Positions 42,861 to 64,000 of a stretch of DNA of 64,000 nucleotides are shown in pieces; positions within the stretch are counted from its first letter, which is position 1, and every line of letters begins with the position of its first letter. Under the pieces are notes generated by a model that did no database searches, had not been told where the DNA came from, and saw nothing but the letters and a program-made list of their open reading frames with translations. Position numbers and translations under genes: made by a program. Source of the stretch: an uncultured Rivularia sp. (lineage in GTDB: Bacteria > Cyanobacteriota > Cyanobacteriia > Cyanobacteriales > Nostocaceae); NCBI GenBank assembly GCA_963665115.1, contig OY762007.1:1632001-1696000 (forward strand), written 5' to 3'.

Positions 42861-43049
42861 ATTATGACGTTATGGTAGAAAAACCTCACCCCCAGCCCCT
42901 CTCCTTATTAAGTAGAGGGGGGTAAGAATTGAAGTCTTTCTCTTAAGATAGCGTAGTATTTAGTAACCGTATTTACCAATATTTTTATAAACTATCAGCC
43001 CATTCACGTACAATATTATGTGCGACTCCAGCTTTATTAAATCATTTTT

Positions 43050-43733
43050 TTAAAGTGTATTTGGGTCGATTCCTTGCTGTTGTAATTTAGCTAAAAGTTG
43101 TTGAAGTTGTTGCTGCTGTTGTACATTTATTTCTTCTGGTGTTTGGTATCTATTCCCATTTTCGTCATACCAAAACAACCATTCTCGCGTTCTCCCTTGA
43201 TAAATTCCTTGTTCTCTTCCAATACCTAAACCTATTTCTGGCATCCAAATTTGATTACCTGGTTGTAGAATATATTCACCGTTAACTAAACGATAAACTT
43301 CTAAACGTTGACGCTTGCGACGTAGACGGGTTGGGGCATAAATAACGTAATATAATATCCCTAATTGGGCATAATCTATTTTTTTCTGTTCGTATTCTCC
43401 GTTGTAGGTTTGAGAGACAACTTCTAAAGTTAAAATTGGGGGAATATTATCTTCTTCCCAAAGCACGTAACTTGAGCGTCCGTTTTCTCCAACAAATCTT
43501 TCTACGTTTAAGCTTAGAAAACCATCGGGAACAATCGGATTTTTGCTGGGTTCGTAATAAACACCCATATTAATTCCAAAATACCAATCATCACGATTTT
43601 GCCAAATTGCTGACAAAATTGCTAATAGTAAATTAGGTATTAGTATTTGTAGTTCGCTATCCACGGGGGTATCGTCAGAATCAGGTAATTCTGCGGAAGA
43701 TGGTAAACAATTTAAGGGATTGTATTGATACAT
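43050..43733 (-). CDS. Uma2-family endonuclease
   Basis: LPDSDDTPVDSELQ, VPDGFLS, LEVVS and YYVIYAP motifs. Confidence 0.9.
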   Translation of the reverse strand: MYQYNPLNCLPSSAELPDSDDTPVDSELQILIPNLLLAILSAIWQNRDDWYFGINMGVYYEPSKNPIVPDGFLSLNVERFVGENGRSSYVLWEEDNIPPILTLEVVSQTYNGEYEQKKIDYAQLGILYYVIYAPTRLRRKRQRLEVYRLVNGEYILQPGNQIWMPEIGLGIGREQGIYQGRTREWLFWYDENGNRYQTPEEINVQQQQQLQQLLAKLQQQGIDPNTL

Positions 43734-43928
43734 AATGTTATCCCTTGATAAAAGGTGTGATTATATTTTACTATTTTTTATAACTTGTTATAACTTGTTC
43801 CTTGTCTCTGGCAAGGAATACAGAAAAGAAGGCTCTGCCTTCCGCTGTGAAACGATGCAGAGCCTCTGATAACGGCATTCCAAGGTAGAATCTTGGAACG
43901 AGATAACGAGATAGTCCAGTACAGCACC

Positions 43929-46109
43929 CTACAAATCTAATTCTAATTGTCCTCCTTGATTCAATTCTAATTCTTGTTGAACGTAGGATACTTTGGATTT
44001 AATTTCATCCATTGATAACCACAGTTCTTGTAATACTTTTTCTTCGGGGATGCGTTTCTTTTCGTCGCGAGTTTGCGGGATAACTTTTAGAGCAACTTCA
44101 AATGTTCGCATGAATAAATCGTTGCTGATTAATCCGGTATTTTTCAAAAATCTGCGGATTGGTTCGATGTTTTCTTCTTCTTGATAAAGGGCAATTATGG
44201 CATGAAGTCCGTCTAATAGATGTTGCGCGGAAAAGTCGTTTTCGTTGACGGAGAATGCGCGTTTTTTGAGTCTTTGTTGGGGTGTTAGTAATTTACAGTT
44301 TCCGCTTTTTGATTCAATTAATTTATGCTTTTTGGCTAAGTCGGAAACGTCAAAACCACCGACAGCTAATGCGAGTTGTCGAGCTTCGTCAAAGGGAAAT
44401 TCGCGGGCTTCAAAGGTGTCCCATGCTAATATATACCATTGGGTTAATGCATCGATGCCGTTGAAATCTTTACCCTGTAATAAGTTTTGCAATCGGTATT
44501 CAACTATCGCTTGACGTACTTCTTCAAATGCTGCTTTGGGTGCGATTTGATTTCCAGCGCTGTCGAGAATAGAGGTATATTTGGTAAATACGCTCAAAGC
44601 TGCACCGAAAGCGGTTAAGCATAAATCGATACCGGGGGGCTTGATGCGGTAATTTGGATTTGCTACTTTGTCAGCATCGGGACGAGAATCTTCGGTGAGG
44701 GATTTTTCGATTTCGGGAGCTTTTTCAAAGACGATATTTCTGATATCAATGCGAACGTCATCCCACCAAGCTTGTTCGGCTTCGGGGTTGCGTTTGCGAC
44801 ATACTAAAAGTACGGTGCTGGATACGGCATTTTTTTGAGCTTGGTGCAGATTTTGGGGATTTTCGGTACTCACAGCCCAAGAAGCGGTAATCTCGAAACC
44901 TGCATCGATGAGAGATTTTGCTAAAACATCCCAAGCACCGGAATCTTTGTGGTTAAATTGTACTGTCATTACGCCATCGTCGCGCAAAACTCGGTGGTAT
45001 TCAGCAAAAGCCATTGCCATTTTTGCTTCGTAGTCTTGGTTAGCGAGTTCTTCGGGGGATATTCCCATATTGCGGAAGCGGGAAGGATTGGCGACGGCTT
45101 CGCGGTCTTTGTCGGTGAGTTCGAGGTAGAATAATTCCGGGAAGATATCGCCGAGGGTGCGTTTTAGCCAGACGTAGAAGAAATCTGAAATATCCGCGTA
45201 GGGAATTGTGCCATAGTAAGGTGGGTCAATAACAATTGCGTCTACATATTTATCAGCAATATGAGTTAAATTATCGGCTGATGCAGCATCTATTTTAATT
45301 ATTTTGGGTTGATATTGTTCGATACCAGGTAAACTTTGAGAACTCGATTTTGTTGCAATTAGACTACATACTTTTTTATAAATTGATTTAAAAGCGTTCG
45401 CAGTAGAAAACCATAGTTCTCCTGCACCACTTGTTTCTGGATAATTCCACATTAAGTTCAATGCGTGTTGCGTAGAAGCTCTTCTAGTAGTAGCCGCACT
45501 TGCCTGCCAATGAGATAATCGACAGTTTTTATCAATACATCTGTCAAATATCATGCTTATATAAACTAAAATTGCTTCTGCTTTATCAAAACCATATTCT
45601 GACAGAATCATTTCTTTTGCATCATTATCCTCCTGCAAATCGGGACCAAATTTCAAGGGATATTCCATTGCTGCTTTCATCGTCACCACAGCAACGGGAT
45701 TTAAATCGGAAGCTAATACATTTAACCCATATCTCGCTGCTTCAAAGGGAATACTACCACCACCCGCAAACGCATCTAATACAGTCGGTGTGCGAGTTCC
45801 CCAAGTCTTTTCACAATAATCCTGTACTTTCTTAATCCTTGTGGAACTTGGTGGAGTTTTGTAAAGCTTGACTTCCTTTCCCGGTACCAACCCCAATAAA
45901 TGCTCAAATTCCTGCATCGTCACATCTGCTGGTAACAAAGAAGCCAAAACCGAAGCGCGACTAAACGACAAAGGCTTGCGAGAATACCATCTATGTAAAC
46001 CCTTAAACGGATTTCCCCCATGCTCGTAATATACCTGCTGATTAAGCAATTGTACCGGCATCATTTTCTCGATGAACAGTTGGGGACGTTCGGGGGTTGG
46101 GTTGGACAT
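43929..46109 (-). CDS. DUF1156-domain adenine methyltransferase, probably internally deleted
   Basis: LHRWYSRKPL, VLDAFAGGGSIPFEA, IDPPYY and DFFYVWLKR motifs. Confidence 0.88.
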   Translation of the reverse strand: MSNPTPERPQLFIEKMMPVQLLNQQVYYEHGGNPFKGLHRWYSRKPLSFSRASVLASLLPADVTMQEFEHLLGLVPGKEVKLYKTPPSSTRIKKVQDYCEKTWGTRTPTVLDAFAGGGSIPFEAARYGLNVLASDLNPVAVVTMKAAMEYPLKFGPDLQEDNDAKEMILSEYGFDKAEAILVYISMIFDRCIDKNCRLSHWQASAATTRRASTQHALNLMWNYPETSGAGELWFSTANAFKSIYKKVCSLIATKSSSQSLPGIEQYQPKIIKIDAASADNLTHIADKYVDAIVIDPPYYGTIPYADISDFFYVWLKRTLGDIFPELFYLELTDKDREAVANPSRFRNMGISPEELANQDYEAKMAMAFAEYHRVLRDDGVMTVQFNHKDSGAWDVLAKSLIDAGFEITASWAVSTENPQNLHQAQKNAVSSTVLLVCRKRNPEAEQAWWDDVRIDIRNIVFEKAPEIEKSLTEDSRPDADKVANPNYRIKPPGIDLCLTAFGAALSVFTKYTSILDSAGNQIAPKAAFEEVRQAIVEYRLQNLLQGKDFNGIDALTQWYILAWDTFEAREFPFDEARQLALAVGGFDVSDLAKKHKLIESKSGNCKLLTPQQRLKKRAFSVNENDFSAQHLLDGLHAIIALYQEEENIEPIRRFLKNTGLISNDLFMRTFEVALKVIPQTRDEKKRIPEEKVLQELWLSMDEIKSKVSYVQQELELNQGGQLELDL

Positions 46110-46221
46110 GGGTGCGGGAGATTGGTAATTTTTAGATCATGTATATTGTAGTGCTTACCACGCAAACCGAAACTTATAAAAATATGCAGTCTTTTATAAT
46201 AAACTAAAACAAGGATTAATC

Positions 46222-46833
46222 ATGGCTCAATCATTAACCAAATTAATTACAGTGCAAGAATTTCTGGAAACTAAACCAGAAAAGGGACGCGATGAATTGC
46301 ATAATGGAGCAATAGTTGAAATGGCACAGCCCATAGGGGAACATGAAGAGGTAACAGGCTTTTTAACTATTGAAGCTTCTGCCGAAATCAAGCGCTTGCA
46401 ATTACCGTATTCAATTCCTAAAACAGCACTAGTGCGATCGGTTAGTAACGAATCAGCGTATTCTCCAGACTTGTTAGTACTGAATAAACCGGCTTTAAAA
46501 TCCGAAGAATTATGGACAAAATATTCTACAGTACAGTTAGGTGCTTCAATCCCTTTAATAATTGAAGTTGTTTCTACAAACTGGCGCGATGATTATTATA
46601 GAAAGCTAGGTGAATATGAGGAGATTGGTATACCTGAATATTGGATCGTAGACTATTTAGGATTAGGTGGAACCAAATTTATCGGTAAACCAAAACAACC
46701 AACTGTGTCTATTTATAATTTAATTAATGATGAATATCAAATTGCTCTATTCCGAGGAAATGACCGGATTGTCTCTTCCACTTTCCCGGAGCTAAATCTC
46801 ACCGCACAACAGATTTTTGATGCCGGAAATTAA
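46222..46833 (+). CDS. Uma2-family endonuclease
   Basis: ELHNG, YSPD, IEVVSTNW and IPEYWIVD motifs. Confidence 0.9.
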   Translation: MAQSLTKLITVQEFLETKPEKGRDELHNGAIVEMAQPIGEHEEVTGFLTIEASAEIKRLQLPYSIPKTALVRSVSNESAYSPDLLVLNKPALKSEELWTKYSTVQLGASIPLIIEVVSTNWRDDYYRKLGEYEEIGIPEYWIVDYLGLGGTKFIGKPKQPTVSIYNLINDEYQIALFRGNDRIVSSTFPELNLTAQQIFDAGN

Positions 46834-46843
46834 CAATTACCAA

Positions 46844-46864
46844 TCCCCAATCCCCAATTACCAA
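46844..46864. repeat. STRR-type heptamer repeats
   Basis: caattaccaatccccaatccccaattacc; similar tracts near 47378, 57730, 63418 and 63540. Confidence 0.6.
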
Positions 46865-46867
46865 AAA

Positions 46868-47296
46868 TCAATCTCCTAACAATACCCGAATTGCTTTTAA
46901 AGCAGTCCGTTTTTTACCGTTACTAACTTTTGCAAACCAATAATGAGATTCTTCGTTACTCATTTCTTTAATTCCAGTAGCAATATTAGCTATTCTTTCT
47001 GGTTTAGAAAGCGGTTGTAATGTTTGAATCAGTAAAGCCAGATTTATTCCCGTTTCTTCACTAACTATATAAGGTGTTTTACGAGTATTATTTAAGGTTT
47101 TGGGGTCGTAATTATTCGCTTTTAAACAATCGTATATCGCTTGCTTTGCCATAATTAAAGCATTACCTTTTAAACGTCCAATCCGTTTCGCAGAAGGACG
47201 TTTTTTTTCACCAGCTTTTTTATAAGCACACTGGTATAATTCCAAGGCAAAATTATTGTTATCTATGGGAACTACACGTAATTGGAATTCTTGCAT
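46868..47296 (-). CDS. DUF3780-like small subunit of the DUF499 system
   Basis: Start at MQEFQ; MSNEESHYWFAK..ALKAIRVLL; lies between the DUF499 and DUF1156 genes. Confidence 0.65.
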   Translation of the reverse strand: MQEFQLRVVPIDNNNFALELYQCAYKKAGEKKRPSAKRIGRLKGNALIMAKQAIYDCLKANNYDPKTLNNTRKTPYIVSEETGINLALLIQTLQPLSKPERIANIATGIKEMSNEESHYWFAKVSNGKKRTALKAIRVLLGD

Positions 47297-47499
47297 TTTT
47301 GAGGAATTGGGAATTTGTAATTGGTGAACCAGTGTGGTCTTGGGGGTCTCCCCCATGAACAACTGGTGAACCCGAAGGGTAATGGGTAATGGGTAATTAA
47401 ACATTGCTGGTGTAGAGACGTTATATATAACGTCTCCCAAAGTTTACCGAAAAAACCAACCAGTGAAAATAAATTTAATTAACTACTAAATGATTACAA

Positions 47500-50400
47500 T
47501 TAATAAGTTACCTTCACTGCTAAATTTAACCTGTCAACCGGATTACGATTAAGGGCACCTTTGATAATACTAATTTCTGAGCCTTCTGGTTGCACTGCAC
47601 AGGAAAATTTAATTTCCAGCTTCAACATGACATCGGCTTGAGCATCTTGATTATTCAACAATGCGTTTATCGCTGCTTGGAAGCTTTGAAACCCTTTTAC
47701 CGCTCCTTGGTATTCTAATCTGACAAACTGTTCCCCGGCGCGAATGGTTGCCAATTGATCGATTTCTATGGGAAGCTTCATTAATAATGGTAAAGCCGTC
47801 ATCAATTTACGGTAGTCCATTACTTGATCTACGGATATGGCGATAAATTCGATACCAGTAATTTTGTCATCGTGAATGCGATCGACTAATTGATTAAATA
47901 CAACATTTGGGGTTCCTTCTAAATTAAATTCTGCTGGTTTTGCTTTAAATAAATCAAGATTATCCCATGAATCACTACCGTTTTCGTTACTGGTAGGATT
48001 TGGCTGAATATTATTTCCGTATATGGTTATTTGATTTTCTTTTTCGACTATTTCACCATTACCGTAGTCGGCAACTATTTTAAAGTTTGTGGTTTTATCA
48101 ACTTGAGCTTCGTATTCATCGCTGGGACGAAATTCTCCTGCTATCAATTCCCCATCTTGATAAAGTGCAATTTTCAAAGCTCCCGATGCTTTCCACCTTA
48201 CTTTTACAGGTTTAATTGAATCTGTACTATTCATTAACTGAGTAGAAAGTTGAATTTCTCGGGGTTTGGGTAATTCTAAAATTCCCCGACGATAAAGCAC
48301 CATCCTTTCAGAAAATTCAATGGTGTCGGGTAAATTCAAGTTCCCATCCGGGGTTTTTATAAACATCTTTTCTCCCACCTTCATATCCCAACTACCATTT
48401 TGCAAACCAGTACGGATGGTATCTCGCAATTTAGAAACTTCTGCATCAAGCAGGATATTTAAACCCAAATTTTTGGCGAATTCTTCTCGTAAAGCTTTGG
48501 TTGTCCAATGTTGTAATCCCGCTAACCAAACTTTCTGTAATATATAAGCTGGTGCATAAGGTGAAGCATTTTCCGAACGAATTTTCTGACAATCTTTAAG
48601 AGCTTTTAAAATCGCATCCTGCTGATTATTTTTACCTTTAACATCGCTAGCATCTTGCGCTGGTAAAGTATAGTGCATTAACCCTTTTGGTGCTTTTACT
48701 TGGTCGTTAGCAGCATAAAATAAATGACGATAAGCATTAGTTAAAGATATTCTCACCTTTAAATCAAATTCCCCTTTCTTTTGTCTTAATTGCTTCTGCT
48801 GACTTTCTGACAAATCTTGTAATCTATTAGCTGAATTGAGAATATTTAATATCGCCAAATATTCCCTCGCATTATTAATTGCTATATCTAATTGACTCTT
48901 ATTAGCAGTTAAAAATAACAAGCGATTTCTATAAGTGCGAAACTTTCCAGATTCTCCAGTTTCACCAAATATTTTTTCTACAAGTAGCGGCGCACCTTCA
49001 GTTGTAGCAGAAACTGTTGCTTCGTTAAAATCAATGATACATAACGCAATATTATCGGCAACATCATCTACATCTCCCGGTGATTCTGGTGCAGAAACTA
49101 ATTTAAATAACCTTTCTGCAAAAATAGTATCTCGACGTTTTCTTAACTCATCTTTAGCTTCAGTTTTACCAATTTGCTGCTTTTCTTCCGAAATAATCTT
49201 ATTAATTGATGGTTCTTCTTTAAACCTAGCAATAGAAGTAATACTGTCATTTTCTAAATACCAAGCAACAGTACTCAATCTTTCCAAAGCAGTATCAACA
49301 AAACTAGTTCCTAACCCCGGAGTTAATAATGATAAATTTAATTCAGTACGTCTAATGCCCGCAACCACACCTTGATTAATCGAATGCAAAAAAATGGTTC
49401 TTGCTACCCAAGAAGAAAAAGCAGGTTTACCAGCAGCTTTCCATTCACCATCTTGGATTTGAGCGTGTGCTTCTCTCCCATCTGCATTATATATGTCAGC
49501 GGATATCGCCAAACGTAACAAAGGACGTTCTAAACGTGAAGTTAATTCGCTGGTAATTTCTTCTTCTATTCCAATAGGAATATGATGGGGATGAATTAAA
49601 GGTATCCAATTATTTGTTTTATTTCCCGAATTTGAACTATTCCACAAATAACGAATAACCCTCGCAAATAATCGTAAAGCACCCCGAGTACGTTGGAAAT
49701 TTTGAATAGAAGCGATTTTTTTATTAAGTAAACTAAAAAGTTCGGGATGGAAGGGATAACTTGCTTCTATAGTGTCAGCGTAACGGGAATCTTTACAACC
49801 ATCGGGTAAACTAACGCTGCTAGCTTTATAACTTTGCAAATATTCCTTTGCTGCATTTTTACCTGCTTCGGTGTCAATACTAGCAAATAAACGCTGTTTC
49901 ACAATATTATAAATTTCCACATCAGTACTAGGTTTTAGAACCCTTTCCTGTCGTGCTGAAGCTGAAATCGCTTCTTTTATTTCCGTAGTTTCTTCCCCGA
50001 AGCTATCACCAGAATCAGCCAAAGTATAAACAAAAATTAAATTATTGCTAGAAGCTGCTAAATCCATCAAAGAAAATAAAAAAGCAACTACCTGCTGTGC
50101 TAAATCGCTTTTACCAACTCCTACCGCTTTACTAACTCGTAAATGTTGAGCAATTTCATCTAAAATTATTACAGTCGGTTGTCCTTGAATAATTCTTTCT
50201 AAAACAGCAGTACCGGGGCTAACTCGCTGCTCGTCGGAACCCTTGAGCAAACTATAACCATCAATCCCCCCGATTTGGTAAGCAATTTCACCCCAAATCG
50301 TGTACGTCGTAATACCTGTATCTGCGTGCAAAACTCCTTCCACCGGAGTCAAATCTTGACAGGCGATCGCCGCTACCTGAATAGGGGGACGTTGTGGTAT

Positions 50401-50751
50401 TACATTTAAGTCAGCAAAACGTTCTAAACCGGGAATTTCTCTACCATTTTTAGCAATATGCCATAAAGCAATTTCATCGTGAGTTTTACCACCACCAAAA
50501 CTAGTTTCCAAACGGATAATCGGAGAACCCACTTTCTCACCAACCAAACGTCCGAATACTTCCGAAATCAAAGTTTTTAATCCCTCAGTAGCAAAAGTAT
50601 TACTAAAGAAAGTTGTAGAATCTTGGTAGACATGGGGAGCTTTACCTTCAGTAACTAACTTTAACTTCGCTGCAAATAAATCTAGTGAAAGTTCTCCGGC
50701 TAATATTTCCGCTCTAGGAACGCAGGTTTTAAATATAGAAGGTAGCTGCAT
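47500..50751 (-). CDS. DUF499 AAA+ ATPase
   Basis: CVPRAEIL, LETSFGGGKTH, TIWGEIAYQ, IILDEI, SYPFHPEL and FQRTRGALRL motifs. Confidence 0.92.
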   Translation of the reverse strand: MQLPSIFKTCVPRAEILAGELSLDLFAAKLKLVTEGKAPHVYQDSTTFFSNTFATEGLKTLISEVFGRLVGEKVGSPIIRLETSFGGGKTHDEIALWHIAKNGREIPGLERFADLNVIPQRPPIQVAAIACQDLTPVEGVLHADTGITTYTIWGEIAYQIGGIDGYSLLKGSDEQRVSPGTAVLERIIQGQPTVIILDEIAQHLRVSKAVGVGKSDLAQQVVAFLFSLMDLAASSNNLIFVYTLADSGDSFGEETTEIKEAISASARQERVLKPSTDVEIYNIVKQRLFASIDTEAGKNAAKEYLQSYKASSVSLPDGCKDSRYADTIEASYPFHPELFSLLNKKIASIQNFQRTRGALRLFARVIRYLWNSSNSGNKTNNWIPLIHPHHIPIGIEEEITSELTSRLERPLLRLAISADIYNADGREAHAQIQDGEWKAAGKPAFSSWVARTIFLHSINQGVVAGIRRTELNLSLLTPGLGTSFVDTALERLSTVAWYLENDSITSIARFKEEPSINKIISEEKQQIGKTEAKDELRKRRDTIFAERLFKLVSAPESPGDVDDVADNIALCIIDFNEATVSATTEGAPLLVEKIFGETGESGKFRTYRNRLLFLTANKSQLDIAINNAREYLAILNILNSANRLQDLSESQQKQLRQKKGEFDLKVRISLTNAYRHLFYAANDQVKAPKGLMHYTLPAQDASDVKGKNNQQDAILKALKDCQKIRSENASPYAPAYILQKVWLAGLQHWTTKALREEFAKNLGLNILLDAEVSKLRDTIRTGLQNGSWDMKVGEKMFIKTPDGNLNLPDTIEFSERMVLYRRGILELPKPREIQLSTQLMNSTDSIKPVKVRWKASGALKIALYQDGELIAGEFRPSDEYEAQVDKTTNFKIVADYGNGEIVEKENQITIYGNNIQPNPTSNENGSDSWDNLDLFKAKPAEFNLEGTPNVVFNQLVDRIHDDKITGIEFIAISVDQVMDYRKLMTALPLLMKLPIEIDQLATIRAGEQFVRLEYQGAVKGFQSFQAAINALLNNQDAQADVMLKLEIKFSCAVQPEGSEISIIKGALNRNPVDRLNLAVKVTY

Positions 50752-51389: not shown

Positions 51390-51706
51390 CTGGATGTGAA
51401 AGGTTGATTTATTCTTCTACTGCACCTAATGCTTTGAGTGTGGAGATTTCGGCTTCGGTTAACCCTTTGACACCTGTGATGTTCATGCGTTCGTAAGGGC
51501 GATCGCTTTTTAGGGTTTTGAGACATTTGCCGGTTTAAGTATTGCTAGTATCAAGAGCTACGTCAATTAGTAATGTCCAGTGTAGCATCTCCTAATACTT
51601 AATTAAAATTAAGGATTTTTACTGAAAAGCAGCAAAACAAGATGTAGGTATTATTAACGACAGTATATGCCGAATGCTGTTTAAGATACCTAGATTCAAA
51701 TTAAAT

Positions 51707-52432
51707 ATGCAAAATAGTTTTTTTCAAGCAGCGAAGAGGTTTTTTAACCCAGAAACCTTAATTCCCTTTTTGATCGGGTCAATTGTTTTGTCCTTACTGG
51801 GTAACGCTATTAGTGACATATTAAAAGCAATTGTTGGCGATACTTTACAAGACGCAGTTAAAATTGCGATCGGCTCAGTATTAATTTTTATATTTTGTGT
51901 TTGGTTAGTAGCGAAATCATTAACGACAAATTTAGCACCGATAGATTTGGGTAAATCTTCTCCTCGCAAACATAAGGGGTTGATATTATTAGTCAGTCGA
52001 GAAGAACCCTGTCGCACAGCAATAGAACATCATCTACCCGAACTAAAATATTGCTGGTTGATTTGTTCTTCCCAAACTATCAACGTTGCGAAAAAACTAC
52101 AGCAAGACTTTCCTAAATTGATAATTCCCGAACCATTAGTAATCAAAGATGTGTATGACCCGGTAGAATTTTCTCAAGTGGTTATGAATGTTTACGATTG
52201 TCTTCCTAGCCGTTGGACAAAAGATGATATTATCGCTGACTTCACGGGAATGACTGCTCAGGGTAGTGTGGGGATGACAATTGCATCTTTATTAATGCGA
52301 CAATCAAAGTTGCAGTATACTCCAGCAGAATCAAGAGATGGTAAACCTACTGGAAATTCTTTAAATCCGATTGAAATTGCGTTAACGGAAAGAAGATTGG
52401 CACGGAGCAAGAAATTGAAAGAAGTTTATTGA
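51707..52432 (+). CDS. TM-CARF effector (Cam1-like)
   Basis: Two N-terminal TM helices; CARF-like GLILLVS, CWLICS and IIADFTGMTAQGSVGM motifs. Confidence 0.75.
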   Translation: MQNSFFQAAKRFFNPETLIPFLIGSIVLSLLGNAISDILKAIVGDTLQDAVKIAIGSVLIFIFCVWLVAKSLTTNLAPIDLGKSSPRKHKGLILLVSREEPCRTAIEHHLPELKYCWLICSSQTINVAKKLQQDFPKLIIPEPLVIKDVYDPVEFSQVVMNVYDCLPSRWTKDDIIADFTGMTAQGSVGMTIASLLMRQSKLQYTPAESRDGKPTGNSLNPIEIALTERRLARSKKLKEVY

Positions 52433-53401: not shown

Positions 53402-54535
53402 TTAAGGATTATTATTAACTTCAGGTTCTAAACCATAACGACGTAATAGTAATTTACCTTGAATAATAGTATTACTAACCCGTATACCTTGAGTTATGCG
53501 AAAATGGTCAATATTTCCTTTATTTGTATATTTATCATACTGTATTCCCCCATGTTGTCTAAGAATCGCAGTATCACCATTTGACTCATTTAATAAACGG
53601 GTAACATTAGCTAAAGTTTCTTGTAATTTAACCCGCTTATGTTTTTCCCTCACTCTGTTGTAATCAGCCCTAAAACTATCTTGATATTCCAATTTAGAAA
53701 AAGAAATTAAATCCCCAGCTAGTAAATCATCTTTACACTGATTCCAAATTAGCTGTCCCCAGGTTGAAAGGGTCATTTTTCCATCAACTTCACCTAACAT
53801 AGTTTCGGGAATTCCGTTAGTTTCCTGGGGAGAAAGTCCCGCACCAGCGTTTAGTAAAGCTAGCTGCATTGTGTAAGGTTTAAATAAGGAAGTATCTACA
53901 GAAATTGGTAAGCGAGGAATAGTAATTAAATCGGATTTTTGACCTTCAAATATGTAAATTATTTCATCTGCGTAAAACATTCCAATGGTGTTGAGATAAC
54001 CTTGCAAACTCTTGAAACTACCCACCAAATTAAAACAAATTTTGTATTTGCTTTCCCTTAAGGGTGGAATAGTTTCTTGCAGCCAAACAATTAAGTCATC
54101 AATTCCCACAGAAAAATCTTCGGTACTCGCAGTAGAAAGTCCGCTGGGAGCATAAATACTAGTATTAGTTAAACCTTGTTTCCTGAGAAATGTTTCGACA
54201 ATTTGAGCGGTATTTTTACCTTGAATTGTATCGGTAGCAATCAGAAAATGGTAATCCTCTTTTCCTTGACTTAAATCTTCTTGGTAGACACCGTAAATAC
54301 CGTTTAATTCCGCACTTGCACGACGAATTTGGGGAATATTAACATTTTCTAACTGTACATTCGCTCTTTGTTCGAGATTATAAATAATCTTTTTGACATT
54401 TTCTGGTGTTTCTTTTTCCTTAAAATTGGCTGCATCGCGCAGTTGTGCATACCAATCTTTTTCTTCGGGGTTAGCGCGATTAATTTGATTTGTTAGTAAG
54501 CTGGTGCCAATGGTAGATAAAATTACGCGACGCAT
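53402..54535 (-). CDS. CARF (APE2256 family)-RelE effector, Cami1-like
   Basis: ILSTIGTSLL, SAELNG, ATDT..G, NLVGSFK and YIFE motifs; C-terminal RelE-like domain DHFRITQGIRV. Confidence 0.85.
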   Translation of the reverse strand: MRRVILSTIGTSLLTNQINRANPEEKDWYAQLRDAANFKEKETPENVKKIIYNLEQRANVQLENVNIPQIRRASAELNGIYGVYQEDLSQGKEDYHFLIATDTIQGKNTAQIVETFLRKQGLTNTSIYAPSGLSTASTEDFSVGIDDLIVWLQETIPPLRESKYKICFNLVGSFKSLQGYLNTIGMFYADEIIYIFEGQKSDLITIPRLPISVDTSLFKPYTMQLALLNAGAGLSPQETNGIPETMLGEVDGKMTLSTWGQLIWNQCKDDLLAGDLISFSKLEYQDSFRADYNRVREKHKRVKLQETLANVTRLLNESNGDTAILRQHGGIQYDKYTNKGNIDHFRITQGIRVSNTIIQGKLLLRRYGLEPEVNNNP

Positions 54536-54614: not shown

Positions 54615-56333
54615 TTAATTCGGTTCCCTTCCCCAAGATAGTTTTAATTCTTTTTCTTTCAAGTTTTTAATAAATGTTTGTAGTTGATTACCTTGCGATT
54701 GATGTTTCCAAGGAGTGCGATCGCCATGAAATATGGTTACAATTTCTAAGTATTGATTGTTTGACACGGGCAACATCCGATGCCAAACTGAACTGAAGAA
54801 TTTTGGTCTTGTATCACCTTGATTTTTACCACCGATTGCTGGAGTAGTCTTGAAAGTATCGTCATGAAATAATTTTACAGCTTGAGATGTATTTACAACC
54901 TTACTGTAAACTGTTACTCGGTTAGGATGCCAAGCTTCTCGCCAACTCATTGCTGATGGCGGTTTTGTACCCAGTCGATTCTTGCAAAGTTCGTATAAAT
55001 TATCCAAAAATTTATTTAACTCTTTCGTTGTGTTTATATTTGCCCAACTAGAGTTTAAGCATTCCCAATGACAACCAATATGTAAACCCTGAGCTAACTT
55101 GGGATAATTATGATAAAACTTTTTATGGGACACTCTGCGCCAAGATTTACCAAATCCACCCATAATAAAGCCGAATTTAAGTACCTGTTCGATAAAGCGG
55201 AGGTCTTCTCTAGATGGCACATTTATGTGTAATATTCCCTCGGTATCATAAGTCGGAGTAAGGTCGTTTTGGTTATAATTTTCCTCACATACTTCCCAGA
55301 AAATATTTACAATCCCGGGGTTTTCTGAACTACCAAAAAACTTATTTTCTACTTGTTTAATCACTTTTTCATGATTACAAACTCCACCCAAAAGTCGTTT
55401 GATATGACCTCTTAAAGTTGCTTTAAATACGTTAGGACGAAATTCTGGCTCATCACTACGTAAAAGCGGACTAACACCAAATCCATTAAAACGAATATTT
55501 AAAGGATACTCAGGTATGCTAGGAGGTTGTGAAGGAATATGACCACCCAATCCATAGCCGGTACTGGTTTTACCTCCTAAACCATTTTGTAATGCTTTCA
55601 ATAAAATTTCTTCAATTTCCTTCCAGTTAATATCGGTGTTACTGCAACTTAATTCAAAAGTACAGGTTGGTTGATAAAAACTAATACTTGCAAGGGCTTT
55701 AGGAGAACCTCCTCCTTCCACCTGACGTGTTTGTTGAGGATGAATTACATCAACAATGCGGTAACGAGTTTCAGAAATAACCTGCCTATTTCGACGGATT
55801 GAAACTTGTTTCGTACCAGCCCAATCTCCTATGGGATAAGCACGGTGAAAACGCAAAATTCCCGGAACTAATTCCTTATTGTCTCCACAGTATTTAATAG
55901 CTTGCTGTGGAGTACAAGCACGTCTAAATAATCCTTTAATACTGCTACCTGGAATAAAAGGGATTCCATTCTTTCCTAAAGCTGGACGGAGAATACTATC
56001 TTGACCGCAATTACTAAATAATCTAAACGGAAACTCTATTTTGATACGATAAGTTTTATCAACGATGCCAAGTTTTGGTTCTTTATGTTGATAACGCGGT
56101 TGGTTATTATTGTTGGAATTAGGATATACCCATTCATCACGCCATTGTTCTAAATCTTCGTTATTACCAGCGAATTGTAGACTACAACGTCCCGAAACTT
56201 GAGCGCGATACATCATTGGTATCTGCTCTATATTCATATTTAATTGAGAATTATTTCTCGATTGTTCTTGTTCAGTTGTACTTTCTGTTTCAATACCGAA
56301 TTGTTTCGCTACTTCACTAAGTCCTCGAATCAT
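54615..56333 (-). CDS. cmr6: Cmr6-Cmr1 fusion RAMP (type III-B variant)
   Basis: PFIPGSSIKG and GLGGKTSTGYG (Cmr6); KATLRG, FFGS and MGGFGKSWRR (Cmr1). Confidence 0.85.
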   Translation of the reverse strand: MIRGLSEVAKQFGIETESTTEQEQSRNNSQLNMNIEQIPMMYRAQVSGRCSLQFAGNNEDLEQWRDEWVYPNSNNNNQPRYQHKEPKLGIVDKTYRIKIEFPFRLFSNCGQDSILRPALGKNGIPFIPGSSIKGLFRRACTPQQAIKYCGDNKELVPGILRFHRAYPIGDWAGTKQVSIRRNRQVISETRYRIVDVIHPQQTRQVEGGGSPKALASISFYQPTCTFELSCSNTDINWKEIEEILLKALQNGLGGKTSTGYGLGGHIPSQPPSIPEYPLNIRFNGFGVSPLLRSDEPEFRPNVFKATLRGHIKRLLGGVCNHEKVIKQVENKFFGSSENPGIVNIFWEVCEENYNQNDLTPTYDTEGILHINVPSREDLRFIEQVLKFGFIMGGFGKSWRRVSHKKFYHNYPKLAQGLHIGCHWECLNSSWANINTTKELNKFLDNLYELCKNRLGTKPPSAMSWREAWHPNRVTVYSKVVNTSQAVKLFHDDTFKTTPAIGGKNQGDTRPKFFSSVWHRMLPVSNNQYLEIVTIFHGDRTPWKHQSQGNQLQTFIKNLKEKELKLSWGREPN

Positions 56334-56346
56334 AATATTTTATTTG

Positions 56347-56871
56347 CTAGTAATTGTGATTATCATAATTATCAGAACTCTTAATTTTATAACGTTGAGT
56401 CCACCAAACCAAAGCATCACATAATTGAGTCAATACCATTAAAGCAATGCGTTGTTGTTCGGGTGGCATTGACCAAATTTCTTTCGCCATTGCTTGGATA
56501 TTTCTAGTTTCTTCGCGCTGTTTTTTTTCTTTGATAGCTTTGAGCCTTTTTTTATCATTCTCTTTCTTTTCTGACTCTGTTAAATAATAAGTTACATCAT
56601 CATTTGGTAAAACAACATCAGCATTTTGTAAGATTTCTTCTAGTGTATCCCAGACGGATTTCCAATATTTACCTTTCGCTGGTTTCTCTCTACCAAGTCT
56701 GAGATGTTCTCCCCAAAACCTTTCTAAACCATATGCAACTGACATTCGCATTTTGTGCGATTCATTTAAGATGTCTTTAGCATCTCGATTTTGTAATACT
56801 AAAGTTTGAGCATAATGGTCAAGTTTATAAGGTTGCCAACCTCTTGTTTTGTTTGTTTGTGCTTGTGTCAT
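56347..56871 (-). CDS. cmr5: Cmr5/Cas11 small subunit
   Basis: Helical protein between cmr4 and cmr6; YGLERF and LVWWTQR motifs. Confidence 0.75.
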   Translation of the reverse strand: MTQAQTNKTRGWQPYKLDHYAQTLVLQNRDAKDILNESHKMRMSVAYGLERFWGEHLRLGREKPAKGKYWKSVWDTLEEILQNADVVLPNDDVTYYLTESEKKENDKKRLKAIKEKKQREETRNIQAMAKEIWSMPPEQQRIALMVLTQLCDALVWWTQRYKIKSSDNYDNHNY

Positions 56872-56877
56872 AATTAA

Positions 56878-57729
56878 TTACTGCTGAGTAGATTTTAAAG
56901 TTACTTGAGTACGACCGAATCCGACTGATTCTAAACCGCCAAAATAGAATTCTTGGGTTTCATTCATATTGGAATCATTAATAAATTCTTCCCATTTTAC
57001 TGGCTTCTCATTGAAGGTTTTCCGTAATGCTATAGGAAAAGTCATAATCGTCCCTTCTGGTAAAGCTTCAACATTAAAAAATGCCCCACCTTTAGCTTTT
57101 TTCTGATTGTCTTCAAGCGCAACTCTACTTTGACGATAAAGTGCCATATCGTGAATCATTGAAATCTCTGTATCATCAACTACTAACAGTAAGTAACGTT
57201 CGGCATCACTAATCTCAGAAGGCATATATTCTTTGAGCTTTTCGTCTTTCTTTTCAAGCGGCAAAAATCCCAAATTAAAAAATAAAGTCTTGCTTGAAGT
57301 TTTGCCGTAATAACTATACGGTTCAAAATTATGTGGTGGTTTACCAGTTAATTTTTGATAACGCTTGAGTAAAGTTGGGCAAGAAACTCTTACTACTGGT
57401 TGATTAGGACAATAGACAGGAAGCCACAAAATGGAAGCATACTCAAGCTTGACTATACCTTCAGTAGTGGTATCCTCTTTACCCAGTTTCGCATCTTTTC
57501 CATACCAATATTCAACTGGGCTAAGTCCTTCTCGAACTTGTTCCTCACCCATTGTTTGCAACCGCATATCGCAGCGAAATCTCCCCCGAATCGAACTACC
57601 AGGAATAATCCCTGTTCTAGTAAATTGGTCGCGAAAAATTAAATTAAGATTACCCGTTTCTTCTCCAGCGCTAGCTCCAGTATACAGAGGTGCCAAAGTT
57701 TCAATGATGCCGTAGGCTTTGTGATACAT
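56878..57729 (-). CDS. cmr4: Cmr4/Cas7 RAMP
   Basis: IIPGSSIRG, FFNVEALPEG and FGGLESVGFG motifs. Confidence 0.9.
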   Translation of the reverse strand: MYHKAYGIIETLAPLYTGASAGEETGNLNLIFRDQFTRTGIIPGSSIRGRFRCDMRLQTMGEEQVREGLSPVEYWYGKDAKLGKEDTTTEGIVKLEYASILWLPVYCPNQPVVRVSCPTLLKRYQKLTGKPPHNFEPYSYYGKTSSKTLFFNLGFLPLEKKDEKLKEYMPSEISDAERYLLLVVDDTEISMIHDMALYRQSRVALEDNQKKAKGGAFFNVEALPEGTIMTFPIALRKTFNEKPVKWEEFINDSNMNETQEFYFGGLESVGFGRTQVTLKSTQQ

Positions 57730-57772
57730 TTTAGTTGTTAGTTGTTAGTGGTTAGTTGTTATTTATTACTCA

Positions 57773-60614
<2,842 letters not shown>

Positions 60615-60754: not shown

Positions 60755-61747
60755 TTAACATTTAGTCAAATGAATCAAAACATCAGCTAATGCTTGTACC
60801 ATCGCACGAGTTGATAAATTTTCTCCTCGCTCTAATCGATGCACGCTACCAGTAAGCAGAGATGTGCTTTCTAACAATTCGCTTGTATTCTCTTGCCAAC
60901 CGTTGCTAAACAAAACTTCGTCTTTGACAGCATTTAGCTGACTGTGAATTTTGGCAATGACTTTTAATCCTAATGTTTGACAAAAATCTTCCCACTCTGC
61001 AAATTTACTCGTGTCTCCCGACAAAATAACTGCGTGGGTTGCTGGTTGCATAATTAGCTTGTTTTCGTCGGTAATTTTGCCACCAACGTCAATGATATTT
61101 ATTAATTGGTTCACACTCTTTACCCATTGTGCAGCTTCTATCGCAAATTTTGGGGTCACAGGTGCTTTATTTCTGCGTTTGCAATCCTTTGCTACTTGCT
61201 CGTTATTTTCGTAAGCTTCTTGATGCCAAGACCCTTCTCCATCAGGGCAAGCCGTGATTATATATGGATAAGGTGCCCCAAAATTACTGAAAATAGCTCT
61301 TTTTAAGCCATCCCTTAAGCATGATTTTCCCGATTGTGGAGGACCGCATAAAACGACTCTGATGGGAGAAAAACTTTCTTCTGGAAATTCTTGGGTTTCA
61401 ATCAAATCTCCTACTTGATATTCTGTGGAGCCGTGTACGGAGGTAACAATATAAACTTTGTGCCTGATAGCACCATCTGCTGTACTAATTTTACTACTCA
61501 GTTTGGGGTCGAGTACGGCGACTGCTTCGTATAAATGTACGAGTTTATGGGAAAGAATATAAGCAACGGGAACTGATTGCGGCCCATCAATTAAGATGCG
61601 CTTGCCTCCGGAAATCTCACCAGAATCAATCATTTGGTTGATTCGAGAGAGTGCGTCTTTAGCAATGCGATCGCCTTGTGCGGGAACGTTACGATTAAAA
61701 CCAACGTGCAATACGTCTCCTTCTAATTTAATTTGGTAGCTTTGCAT
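60755..61747 (-). CDS. csx3: Csx3/Crn3-like ring nuclease fused to a P-loop NTPase
   Basis: IDGPQSVPVAY..H..AVLDPKL..IVTSVH; Walker A GPPQSGKS, ACPDGEG and DVGG. Confidence 0.75.
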   Translation of the reverse strand: MQSYQIKLEGDVLHVGFNRNVPAQGDRIAKDALSRINQMIDSGEISGGKRILIDGPQSVPVAYILSHKLVHLYEAVAVLDPKLSSKISTADGAIRHKVYIVTSVHGSTEYQVGDLIETQEFPEESFSPIRVVLCGPPQSGKSCLRDGLKRAIFSNFGAPYPYIITACPDGEGSWHQEAYENNEQVAKDCKRRNKAPVTPKFAIEAAQWVKSVNQLINIIDVGGKITDENKLIMQPATHAVILSGDTSKFAEWEDFCQTLGLKVIAKIHSQLNAVKDEVLFSNGWQENTSELLESTSLLTGSVHRLERGENLSTRAMVQALADVLIHLTKC

Positions 61748-61956
61748 ACTTTGTATTTCTCTGACTACTGGTTTACTATGACATGGAAGTGGAATAGGCG
61801 TATTCCATATTTGTAGAAGGTAGCTTTGCTAAATCACAATGTGAAGTGATGATTTCACATTGCTGGAGACGTAGCAGTGCTACGTCTCTACAAGGGTTTT
61901 GTGTTTCATACAAAATGTAGGTGATTATAATTTATCTTTGATTTAATCTACATTCT

Positions 61957-63403
61957 TTACCAAACAATAAAATCCGAATTATCAAAATCTTGCTCTTCAA
62001 AATCTTGACTTTCAAAATCCGAATTTTGAACGACTTGCTCCGAACTATTCAACCCACAAAAATAACAATCATCCGTCTGTAAATATGTGGTATCAGTTTT
62101 ACGCCATTCGCTATTGGGAAACTCATAAATCCAATCAATACCAGAATCCACATTCATAAAACCGCTTACTATACCGTGAATCACTCCCACAGCGGTACTT
62201 GCACAAATACTATTCAACCAAAATACTGAGGGGGTCATTTACTCCTTCTAAATAACCCGCATTTTCAGCCATATGATTAATTTCTGATGGTGCAGACTCT
62301 AAAGCAGCGCGTTGTAAGTTGATGATGTTACCGCACATTAAACACCAATCACCACCCACAGGAGGAATTGTGATTCTACAGTACATTCGCGGTGTTCCAT
62401 CTGATTTCACGTCGATGTGAGTCCCCAAGCATACCAAAGGACGCATATACTTTAATGCAACTTCTTGAGCAGTTTTGCGAGAAAGATGATTATCAGTAGC
62501 AACTATAATCAAATCGCAATTAGCTATTTCTTGCGTGGCTGTTTCGGCTTCAATAGCAGTCGATATGGTTTTGACATGAGAACCACAAGCGTAAATTTTT
62601 TTAATCAAATGCTTGACATAATGGACTTTGTGCCAATTCTGCTCGACCATTTCTTGAGTTGCACCCGTCATCCGATTTAAGTTGACTTGCTCTAATTTAT
62701 CGGGGTCAACCAGCACCCAATTTTTGACACCCAGACGACCTAATAATTCCGCAAAAATAGAACCAATTCCACCACAACCGATTAATCCTACTTTCAATTG
62801 ATTCAAAGTTTTTTGATTGGTTTCCCCAAATGTTTTTTGACGAGCGAACATTAAATTAGGGTTGTCAAAAATATTTTCAGAATCAGAGATTTCAAATAAT
62901 GAATTACAAAAATCAACCTGCTGAAATTCTCTTCCCTTCCTATCCCATATCCGAAACTTACAATTATCTAAGCCTTCATCAAACACACCCGAAACCAAAC
63001 GGGGTTTTTCAGGGAAATGAGATGCAATAAACTTTGCATATTCTGATTCATAACGGTTATCAACATAAGAAAACTCAGGAATACCCACACCAGCATGAGT
63101 ATGAATATGGACTATATCCAAACCGGGGAATAGATGATTTTCTAACAGATAAGAATGGAAACGTTGAGTTAAAACCAAACCATCGGTAGATTGATGTTCG
63201 TAGCATTCAGAAGTTGGAACAACCCAAGTCTTGGGAATATATCTAACTTTGCGTTTTGAAACCTGATGACGCTGACAAAATAGAAAACCAATTACTTCTT
63301 CGTTGAACATCCGAGAAGAGAGCATCGATTTTTGAAAATCAGACCACATTTTTGGTGGTACATGAAGAGAAAATTTAGTATTCATGGTTAGTTGATGATC
63401 CAC
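61957..63403 (-). CDS. JAB peptidase-ThiF/E1 fusion (single +1 frameshift at about 62232)
   Basis: JAB: EEVIG..HIHTH-x7-FSYVD; E1: GCGGIGS, DPD..NLNR, ATDN, CLMC and CYFC. Confidence 0.88.
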
Positions 63404-63569
63404 ACCCGACCGGTGAAAGTTGTTAGTTGATAGTTGTTAGTTGATAGTTTAGATTTATGGTGCGTGACGGTAATTTCAAATGATTTTGTTACAAGTGATA
63501 AGTTATCGTAACCGTCACACACCCTACAAAAATAAATATCCTACTTCTTACTTATTACTTCTTACTTAA

Positions 63570-64000
63570 TTAATCGTCACTATTAATCGCATGACGTGCT
63601 GTTACAAACAATGTCGTGAGATTGTGACCGTTTTCCGCATTATTACTAGGTCGCCAAGAATTCAACCAAACATCGTGATTAAATCCTCCTCCCAATCCGA
63701 CACAATACCAATACCATCCTTGTTCGCTTAAAAATGGGGCACCGTAATAGCTTTGTCTGGTAAAATGATGGTCGCCTTCTCCTACAGTATTCCAAGGATA
63801 ATTTAGATAGCAGCCAATCGGAGGAAGTCGAGGGTAATCTGACGGTAATAGAAACAAAACATCAGTATTGGAAACCTTAAATTTTTGAGAAGATAAAGGC
63901 ATTCCCTTAATCAAAACAGCAGTATATCTAGTATCACCAACAGTCTTGCTACCAACGATTATATTTTTAGCAACTTTTTCTAATAGCTTAAGTTCTTCTA
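63570..64000 (-). CDS. Prokaryotic E2/UBC-like protein, 5' end outside the window
   Basis: LLPSDYPRLPP, GWYWYC (candidate catalytic Cys), W..GHNL; frame stays open to position 64000. Confidence 0.75.
   Translation of the reverse strand, partial: EELKLLEKVAKNIIVGSKTVGDTRYTAVLIKGMPLSSQKFKVSNTDVLFLLPSDYPRLPPIGCYLNYPWNTVGEGDHHFTRQSYYGAPFLSEQGWYWYCVGLGGGFNHDVWLNSWRPSNNAENGHNLTTLFVTARHAINSDD

Follow-up and report, generated by a model that had tools for sequence, protein, structure and literature searches.

The DNA examined here, referred to as the window, is a stretch of 64,000 nucleotides from an uncultured Rivularia sp. (contig OY762007.1, positions 1,632,001 to 1,696,000). At its end lies the 3' half of a cassette of five genes, which encode, in order, a NYN ribonuclease, a small membrane protein, a ubiquitin-like protein (Ubl), an E2-like protein and a JAB-E1 fusion. 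The cassette is located within a type III-B CRISPR locus, between the reverse transcriptase (RT)-cas1-cas2 genes with their array and the cas10-cmr genes. The NYN, membrane protein and Ubl genes lie outside the window in the same genome (8.69 Mb, single contig, 99.9% complete) and were read from locus L001 (G000:C1:1690001-1710000; L001 coordinate + 58000 = window coordinate). The enzymes were assigned with high confidence to a Bub-like set, and they probably constitute a working conjugation pathway. It is tentatively proposed, with a chance approaching even, that the cassette is a Bub-type tagging arm accessory to type III defence and aimed at invader proteins. The observed part of this proposal consists of gene content and order, the folds of the predicted models, residue conservation and the CRISPR linkage; counted in its favor are the match to BubCD, the BubB fold, the alignment of Cys118 of the E2, the IVKG end of the Ubl and the linkage to CRISPR. 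An earlier reading of the window from its letters (the sequence-only reading) had described the module as an E2 plus a JAB-E1 fusion. Both genes were confirmed, and two additional upstream genes, those for NYN and for the 115-aa membrane protein, had been missed.

Enzymes of the cassette

The JAB-E1 fusion is encoded at 61957..63403 (-), as two open reading frames (ORFs) in this copy (62210-63403 and 61957-62238) and as a protein of about 475 aa in relatives. Its best match in the PDB was Citrobacter BubCD (E = 4e-16), and its ThiF domain was recognized with E = 1e-26. The protein of an intact relative aligned to BubCD over residues 29-399 (E = 8e-17), placing its Tyr on Y370 of BubCD. In the window copy, the JAB residues are E36, H101, H103 and D115, and the crossover Tyr of the E1 is Tyr384 (62252-62254). 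The JAB Glu, His, His and Asp, both CxxC pairs and the crossover Tyr were kept in 71/71 JAB-E1 proteins from ORFs of more than 380 aa. Among ORFs of at least 430 aa, the crossover loop contained the Tyr and no Cys in 96/96 cassette proteins and in 2/2 proteins of canonical Bub. Since a crossover-loop Cys is absent, a Tyr oxyester is predicted, and the thioester assay recommended in the sequence-only reading would mislead if applied to the E1. The same reading took the JAB-E1 fusion to be unusual; it is in fact the hallmark of Type I Bub, which comprises BubAB (Ubl-E2), BubCD (JAB-E1) and BubE and which uses Tyr and Ser oxyesters, as described in the available text of 10.1101/2024.11.21.623953.

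The E2-like protein of 161 aa (PF14462, E = 4.8e-6) is encoded at 63570..64000 (-), its start lying 55 bases past the window end (L001:5570-6055). The predicted model (predicted local distance difference test score [pLDDT], 90.5) gave Citrobacter BubB as the best fold match, with Z 12.5 and a root mean square deviation (rmsd) of 2.8 over 126 aligned residues, the next match being at Z 9.9. The predicted catalytic residue is Cys118 (63702-63704), and His97 is conserved. This Cys was present in 40/40 aligned homologues, down to ~22% identity, and the motif W-x-W-Y-C was present in 123/123 cassette loci read, a count that leaves aside 2 loci where the motif region was not covered. The sequence WSRH was confined to the 2 canonical Bub loci. 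In a MAFFT alignment, Cys118 fell on the Ser of the canonical WQRWSRH (S333 of BubB), and in the shortest members the stretch between two invariant Trp residues was gap-free.

The Gly-ending Ubl that the sequence-only reading expected just past the window was found 95-301 bp beyond the window end (L001:6095-6301, -) and is a 68-aa protein ending in PKIVKG plus 3 residues. Its model (pLDDT 83.8) has a beta-grasp fold, for which the match to BubA (Z 8.0, rmsd 2.8, 63 aligned) was tied with that to ubiquitin (Z 7.7). Across 78 loci, the end I[VI]KG was followed by a stop (47), by a tail of 1-10 residues (30) or by a fused E2 (1), and the tail is not conserved; this is the pattern expected of JAB maturation. 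The Ubl and E2 are separate genes in the window genome, and the fusion seen in 1/78 genome loci was also found in several database homologues. The rows of one Ubl alignment had been picked by the motif [IVT]KG, and its K-G is invariant by construction; the counts quoted are from other tallies. Compared with the window Ubl, 1399 synonymous and 472 non-synonymous codon differences were counted over 62 loci.

Based on the biochemistry of Bub, the JAB domain would cleave after the IVKG of the Ubl, removing the tail or the fused E2, and the E1 would adenylate the terminal Gly and form a Ubl-Tyr oxyester. The Ubl may then be handed to Cys118 of the E2 as a thioester, a step suggested by the alignment. 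This would amount to a mixed Tyr-then-Cys relay, unlike the relay of Bub (Tyr then Ser) or that of Bil (Cys E1). The reactivity of a tyrosyl ester would suffice for transfer of the tag to a thiol. In the least secure part of the scheme, the target might be an invader protein that the E2, like that of Bil, selects without an E3, the small membrane protein might tether the machinery to the membrane, and the NYN ribonuclease would probably trim CRISPR RNA (crRNA) or cut RNA alongside.

It was also considered that the Ubl could be a ThiS/Urm1-like sulfur carrier, or that the recipient of the Ubl could be RNA or a small molecule instead of protein. The Ubl is weakly ThiS-like (E = 5e-4), the E1 is a ThiF match and the usual partner is a ribonuclease, all of which would suit such a role. 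However, the unit includes an E2 with an invariant Cys, the closest matches of its E1 and E2 are BubCD and BubB, whose conjugation is to protein, and no rhodanese or desulfurase was evident among the frequent neighbors as judged from sequence starts and partial annotation. This alternative was considered very unlikely.

The 115-aa membrane protein, a coiled-coil/transmembrane (TM) protein of the 'CorA-like' kind, is encoded at L001:6474-6821 (-) (PDLC01177, E = 1e-38). Its N-terminus, M-x-T-[VIL]-N-G-K-L, reproduces the motif of the first hairpin of the Ubl (NGKL) in 67/72 loci, and the rest of the protein drifts. The shared motif is written in different codons in the two genes of the window genome, which points to selection on the peptide. 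The N-terminus is possibly a Ubl mimic or a docking peptide, and the TM protein may use the docking site of the Ubl hairpin. The PADLOC 'CorA-like' model suggests that this gene was already included in an earlier CRISPR gene catalogue.

The NYN ribonuclease (L001:6864-7439, -; 191 aa; PF01936, E = 3.6e-29) has the acidic residues D12, D99, D124 and D126, which were found in 92-95 of 96 homologues. NYN was ruled out as a universal Lys (isopeptide) acceptor by the NYN domain of locus L151, which contains no Lys; in three other loci the domain contains one. A search for longer NYN fusions yielded one 337-aa protein, with NYN as the sole annotated domain. A complex prediction for NYN with the Ubl scored 0.00; controls were not folded, and the result was counted neither for nor against an interaction. 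The pairing of NYN with a Ubl recalls eukaryotic NYN ribonucleases that have ubiquitin-binding domains. In some loci, a second, longer NYN gene is found head-to-head with that of the cassette (L026:11654-12655, L132:12621-13589).

Association with type III CRISPR loci

The upstream half of the window locus, in the 5' to 3' direction, consists of HD, RT, cas1, a four-helix-bundle gene, cas2, the 90-repeat array and two opposite-strand ORFs. The downstream half consists of NYN, the TM protein, the Ubl, E2, JAB-E1, csx3-AAA, cas10, cmr3, cmr4, cmr5, a Cmr6-type RAMP and CARF-RelE, and then TM-CARF. The locus is of type III-B, with a Cas10/Cmr2 that has GGDD, with Cmr3-6, with an array and with adaptation genes; GGDD was kept in 37/37 full-length Cas10 proteins adjoining cassettes. 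The module had been thought to head the locus. It is mid-locus, since RT, cas1, cas2 and the array are upstream on the same strand. The succession of E2, JAB-ThiF, csx3-ATPase and cas10-cmr on the minus strand, with gaps of about 165-210 bp, had been read correctly. The ORF gaps are 166 bp between E2 and JAB-E1 (184 bp from the likelier ATG at 63385), 209 bp between JAB-E1 and csx3 and 179 bp between csx3 and cas10.

Linkage was assessed in a genome scan using the best 80 of 100 relatives, 78 of those 80 being labelled cyanobacteria. JAB-E1 was present downstream in 80 of these loci, the Ubl upstream in 79 and NYN upstream in 74, and cas genes or an array were present in the flanks examined of 69. 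For the 39 loci with at least 8 kb on both sides, cas genes or an array were detected in 38 by tblastn and a repeat scan (cas10 in 25, an array in 33, RT in 26); the 39th, with a decayed cassette, has a III-D cas10 and csx10 upstream, making 39/39. By comparison, the share of the window genome situated no more than 10 kb from an array or cas gene is 2.5%, and 0/3 NYN paralogues are so situated. In 40/44 loci, cas10 lies downstream and on the same strand; in 34/39, cas2 lies upstream. The CRISPR linkage claimed for the clade was thus upheld, and the sequence-only reading's own counter-case, of homologues mostly not linked to CRISPR, does not apply to the cyanobacterial clade.

The suggested check of co-occurrence with cas10 gave the same picture. 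Among 61 related genomes, 15 have the cassette, 22 have the same Cas10 family and 14 have both, so that this Cas10 family is found in 14/15 carriers and 8/46 non-carriers; two weak Cas10 matches (G032, G053) and one weak E2 match (G018) were left out of this tally. Where cas10 is more than 10 kb from the cassette in these genomes, it is 15-36 kb off or on another contig. As the genomes are kin, the linkage numbers are descriptive only. The cassette is rare, occurring in 8/401 genomes drawn across the phylum, window genome included, and it is carried inside III-B loci by two annotated cyanobacterial plasmids. Very probably, it is stably inherited with type III loci. A search of viral contigs with two alignments yielded no relative of the cassette.

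These data could also be explained if the cassette were an autonomous stress or defence operon, carried along in CRISPR islands and regulated together with them but functionally uncoupled from type III. This was judged unlikely. Consistent with it, non-CRISPR relatives are found on integrative elements and the cassette itself is found on plasmids, a WYL-type TIGR03985 gene is present in 24 of the best 80 loci and WYL regulators are also found beside canonical Bub, and the cyanobacterial counts could be accounted for by a single insertion that then spread vertically and on plasmids. The position of the cassette has, however, been kept across several cyanobacterial families despite exchange of the adjacent Cmr genes, there are two separate CRISPR-linked clades, and the frequent neighbors across the best 80 of 100 loci are cas genes and not mixed defence genes. 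In addition, canonical cyanobacterial Bub loci had no cas gene in 12-15 kb (2/2, a small control).

A metagenome scan targeted the most distant part of the family, and its best 80 of 88 loci included ~35 with E2 identities of ~27-46%. Where the DNA reaches, these loci keep a Ubl ending in [IVT]KG, a Cys-E2 and a Tyr JAB-E1, and NYN is present in 18/23 of those with at least 900 bp upstream. In a high-GC clade (E2 ~30-37% identical; 12 loci, two of them near-copies), the cassette is head-to-head with cas6 and converges on type III-D genes, namely Csx15, a TIGR03986 RAMP, Csx19 and, once, SAVED. In a quick JAB-E1 tree, the sister of the cyanobacterial clade is non-CRISPR, and the III-D clade falls among non-CRISPR lineages. 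An approximately unbiased (AU) test rejected the CRISPR-linked groups as one clade (p-AU 1.6e-49), with long branches in play and with 27 rows that were selected after the quick tree was seen. Either CRISPR loci acquired the cassette on two occasions, or an early association was lost repeatedly.

Several of the distant copies are on mobile DNA. Small integrative elements with a TraD-like coupling protein, a Replic_Relax relaxase and a tyrosine integrase were recognized at L133, L135, L138 and L144, and the cassettes of L138 and L144 are without NYN. At L155:318-1358, an integron integrase is upstream of a copy of the cassette from which NYN has been lost, and csx15 lies downstream of that copy.

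Possible targets and relation to known systems

Co-divergence with JAB-E1 was compared for genes of the cyanobacterial loci. The distance correlation (rho) was highest for cas1 (0.86, 33 loci), followed by E2 (0.79), csx3-AAA (0.78), NYN (0.64), cas10 (0.51) and cmr4 (0.20); for the 14 loci with all genes, the values were 0.81 for cas1, 0.66 for NYN, 0.65 for cas10 and 0.47 for cmr4. Close relatives have E2 proteins of 93-100% identity yet Cmr4 proteins of 53-92%, the Cmr genes having been exchanged beneath the cassette, and Cmr subunits were not seen in the III-D cassette loci. A Cmr subunit is an unlikely target because of this swapping, the III-D result and the weaker co-divergence of cas10 and cmr4. 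No CARF or SAVED family was matched by NYN, the TM protein, the Ubl, E2 or JAB-E1 in Pfam and PADLOC, which leaves direct control of the cassette by cyclic oligoadenylate (cOA) unsupported. No sensing of cOA is predicted for the cassette, and CARF effectors and a ring nuclease are encoded elsewhere in the locus; the cassette may contain a sensor of a kind outside known families.

A possible but rather unlikely alternative is that the tag regulates the CRISPR machinery itself, through conjugation or non-covalent Ubl binding, acting on NYN, on Cas6/crRNA maturation or on acquisition by RT-Cas1. In both CRISPR-linked clades, NYN adjoins elements of crRNA biogenesis, being directly after the array in the cyanobacterial clade and head-to-head with cas6 in the III-D clade. 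A Bacteroides NYN encoded next to cas6 is described as a non-specific ribonuclease and proposed crRNA trimmer in the available text of 10.1101/2024.04.08.588522. The window locus is without cas6, at several distant loci the NYN gene directly adjoins or overlaps that of the Ubl, and it is cas1 that the cassette tracks best. Against such regulation, NYN together with the Ubl system is also found where cas genes are lacking (L133, L135, L160, L164, L198), NYN can be free of Lys, the co-divergence with cas1 may be plain linkage, and few possible targets are common to III-B and III-D loci. A more specific form, in which type III CRISPR twice recruited a Ubl pathway from Tyr oxyester to Cys thioester for switching NYN or the crRNA machinery, with the membrane protein, as a mimic of the first Ubl hairpin, localizing it, was considered doubtful. 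If it were true, ubiquitin-like post-translational control would be wired into CRISPR immunity.

Returning to the tagging of invader proteins, a number of observations weigh against this proposal. For the chemistry, hhalign supported the homology of E2 and BubB (probability 97.9) and placed the Cys two residues off the Bub Ser, at low confidence, and His335 and Asp299 of BubB are not kept in the cassette E2. Protection against phage has not been demonstrated for any Bub operon, according to the available text of PMC13373217. For the linkage, the cyanobacterial cassette loci are kin and not independent, and the difference between cas1 and cas10 in co-divergence is smaller on the 14 complete loci (0.81 versus 0.65). 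The cassette is absent from 8/22 genomes with this Cas10 family, so type III CRISPR does not need it. Nor does the cassette need CRISPR, as relatives live without cas genes in the flanks examined: 4 loci are beside TraD/relaxase/integrase genes and 3 are beside HerA-like ATPases, with no cas gene in 5-20 kb. NYN is missing in 5/23 of the distant loci with at least 900 bp upstream. Because the cassette converges on the RAMP operon in III-D loci, co-transcription with cas10 is not general. Finally, a cluster at 40473-50751 (-), with a DUF499 ATPase, DUF7680, a DUF1156 methylase and a helicase, lies ~1 kb from the TM-CARF gene. We take it to be a restriction-like defence system, and the window is therefore also a defence island.

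Type I Bub is one of the closest known systems. It shares with the cassette the JAB-E1 fusion with the JAB E/H/H/D residues and the crossover Tyr, the BubB-like E2 fold and a beta-grasp Ubl matured at Gly; some cassette members keep the Ubl-E2 fusion, and no E3 was seen. The cassette differs in having a Cys in the E2 where Bub has the Ser-His-Asp set (S333/H335/D299), in Ubl and E2 genes that are mostly separate where BubAB is fused, in the addition of NYN (with the TM protein in cyanobacteria) and in its situation in type III CRISPR loci. BubE (PF20137, DUF6527) was not found in the window genome, and two BubE queries matched 2/168 loci, both canonical Bub. The cassette is Bub-like in its workings and lacks three marks of Type I Bub: a Ser E2, BubE and the BubAB fusion. 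Class 6e of Iyer et al. (6E.1 operons) combines an 'inactive' E2 with JAB-E1 in the available text of PMC1779556.

Bil (Type I/II) likewise has a Ubl, E2, JAB and E1 without an E3 and is the precedent for tagging of phage proteins. Its JAB is separate and its E1 has the IAD-AAD-CYS architecture, whereas in the cassette one adenylation domain, bearing a Tyr, is joined to the JAB; membership in Bil was rejected on the basis of one ThiF domain fused to JAB and the lack of a crossover Cys. Type II CBASS (a system of antiphage signaling based on cyclic oligonucleotides), with Cap2 and Cap3, has E1, E2 and JAB domains coupled to nucleotide-signalling immunity. Cap2, however, combines E2 and E1 in a fusion and conjugates the cyclase itself, in contrast to the dedicated Ubl and separate E2 of the cassette. 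Membership in CBASS was rejected because the E2 is a separate 161-aa gene and the PADLOC E1-E2 models match the E1 domain only. No CD-NTase was evident among the annotated locus genes, and no search aimed at CD-NTase families was made. The type III-B NYN of Bacteroides fragilis resembles that of the cassette in being a NYN ribonuclease in a type III locus near crRNA-processing elements; the likeness is one of description, and ubiquitin machinery is not mentioned in the available text (10.1101/2024.04.08.588522).

The association with CRISPR has been published before, in the form of a label. The cassette domains are among the putative CRISPR auxiliary genes in the Table S3 row and Fig. 6D legend available from Altae-Tran et al. 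2023 (PMC10910872), and the example given there (JAAUYB010070855 3244-3730) is the E2 of locus L174, which is 69% identical to the window E2 and has the same neighbors. In that text, the entry is a label only, with no link to Bub, catalytic analysis or experiment. The Csx3-AAA family is described in the available parts of PMC6546367 (Shah et al.) and PMC12409355; the passages available from Shah et al. contain no mention of ubiquitin, ThiF, JAB or NYN. CRISPR and NYN are not mentioned in the main texts of two Bub preprints, and two supplementary files were likewise without a match. The literature search found no study of the cassette, and subscription papers and supplements may hold one. Hence the JAB-E1 fusion (as BubCD) and the catalogued CRISPR association were already known. 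Going beyond the catalogue entry are the Bub assignment and the Tyr-to-Cys relay predicted from sequence, as well as a second association, that with III-D loci, separated from the first by non-CRISPR lineages, and the resemblance of the membrane protein's N-terminus to the Ubl.

Structures of Bub have been solved, but its target and biological role are not known, and the cassette offers a natural context for addressing both, in type III loci and on some plasmids. The predicted Tyr-to-Cys relay would occupy an intermediate place between Bub and ubiquitination by Cys alone. If the cassette is coupled to CRISPR, protein tagging would be added to type III immunity, for which no such study was found in the literature searched.

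Frameshifts and neighboring features

The window copy has 1-nt frameshifts in JAB-E1 near 62230, in cas10 near 59930 and in cmr3 near 57978, all three in G runs. These were compared with contigs from four sequencing runs of one study, three of which cover the stretch. The extra base at 59930 was absent in 3/3 covering runs, and that at 62230 was absent in 2/3 and present in run X1. The extra base at 57978 was absent in two covering runs, with both forms in X1. JAB-E1 is a single 475-aa frame in the closest relative, and most relatives are intact. All three frameshifts are probably assembly errors, and the one at 62230 may be a real mutation in one subculture.

Downstream of the cassette, the Csx3(Crn3)-AAA ATPase fusion, a predicted ring nuclease for cyclic tetra-adenylate (cA4), is encoded at 60755..61747 (-) (PADLOC PDLC01045, E = 1e-113). 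It is followed by cas10/cmr2 at 58871..60575 (-), a short form with the GGDD palm motif that is read as two ORFs (PF12469, PF22335, PDLC02051), and by cmr3, cmr4, cmr5 and a 572-aa Cmr6-type RAMP at 54615..58883 (-) (PADLOC Cmr3, Cmr4, Cmr5, Cmr6). The CARF-RelE effector at 53402..54535 (-) (PDLC01934, E = 1.5e-150; PF09651) is of the type named Cami1, and a TM-CARF effector is encoded at 51674..52432 (+) (PDLC01943, E = 1e-119). Outside the window, the CRISPR array of 90 repeats is at L001:9382-15858 (-) and cas2, cas1 and RT are at L001:16078-19166 (-). Three cas6 genes are present elsewhere in the genome. The 88 spacers of the array gave no self-match elsewhere in the genome, and scans for promoters and terminators were at or below chance (11 found versus 24.4 expected and 5 versus 4.2).

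Short intergenic repeats are present at 57730-57760, 61860-61900 and 63418-63450, one of them being an inverted repeat, and these draw contigs from many other places. Lying between operon genes, they could be sites of RNA stabilization or processing. Between the array and NYN, at L001:7824-8984 (+), a DUF4112 gene is accompanied by a 228-aa gene that has no annotation and whose start resembles a signal peptide; this opposite-strand pair is limited to the closest relatives (6/80 loci). An M48 peptidase gene is found near the cassette in 14 of the best 80 loci. At L019:916-6156, a Tn7-like transposon (TnsAB-like, TnsC, TniQ) splits the CRISPR array adjoining the cassette. Locus L059, in a record labelled Acetobacteraceae, has a cassette of 79% identity together with a cyanobacterial CRISPR repeat and is probably a binning error. 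In the cluster at 40473-50751, the helicase and the DUF1156 methylase look shorter than expected and may be truncated.

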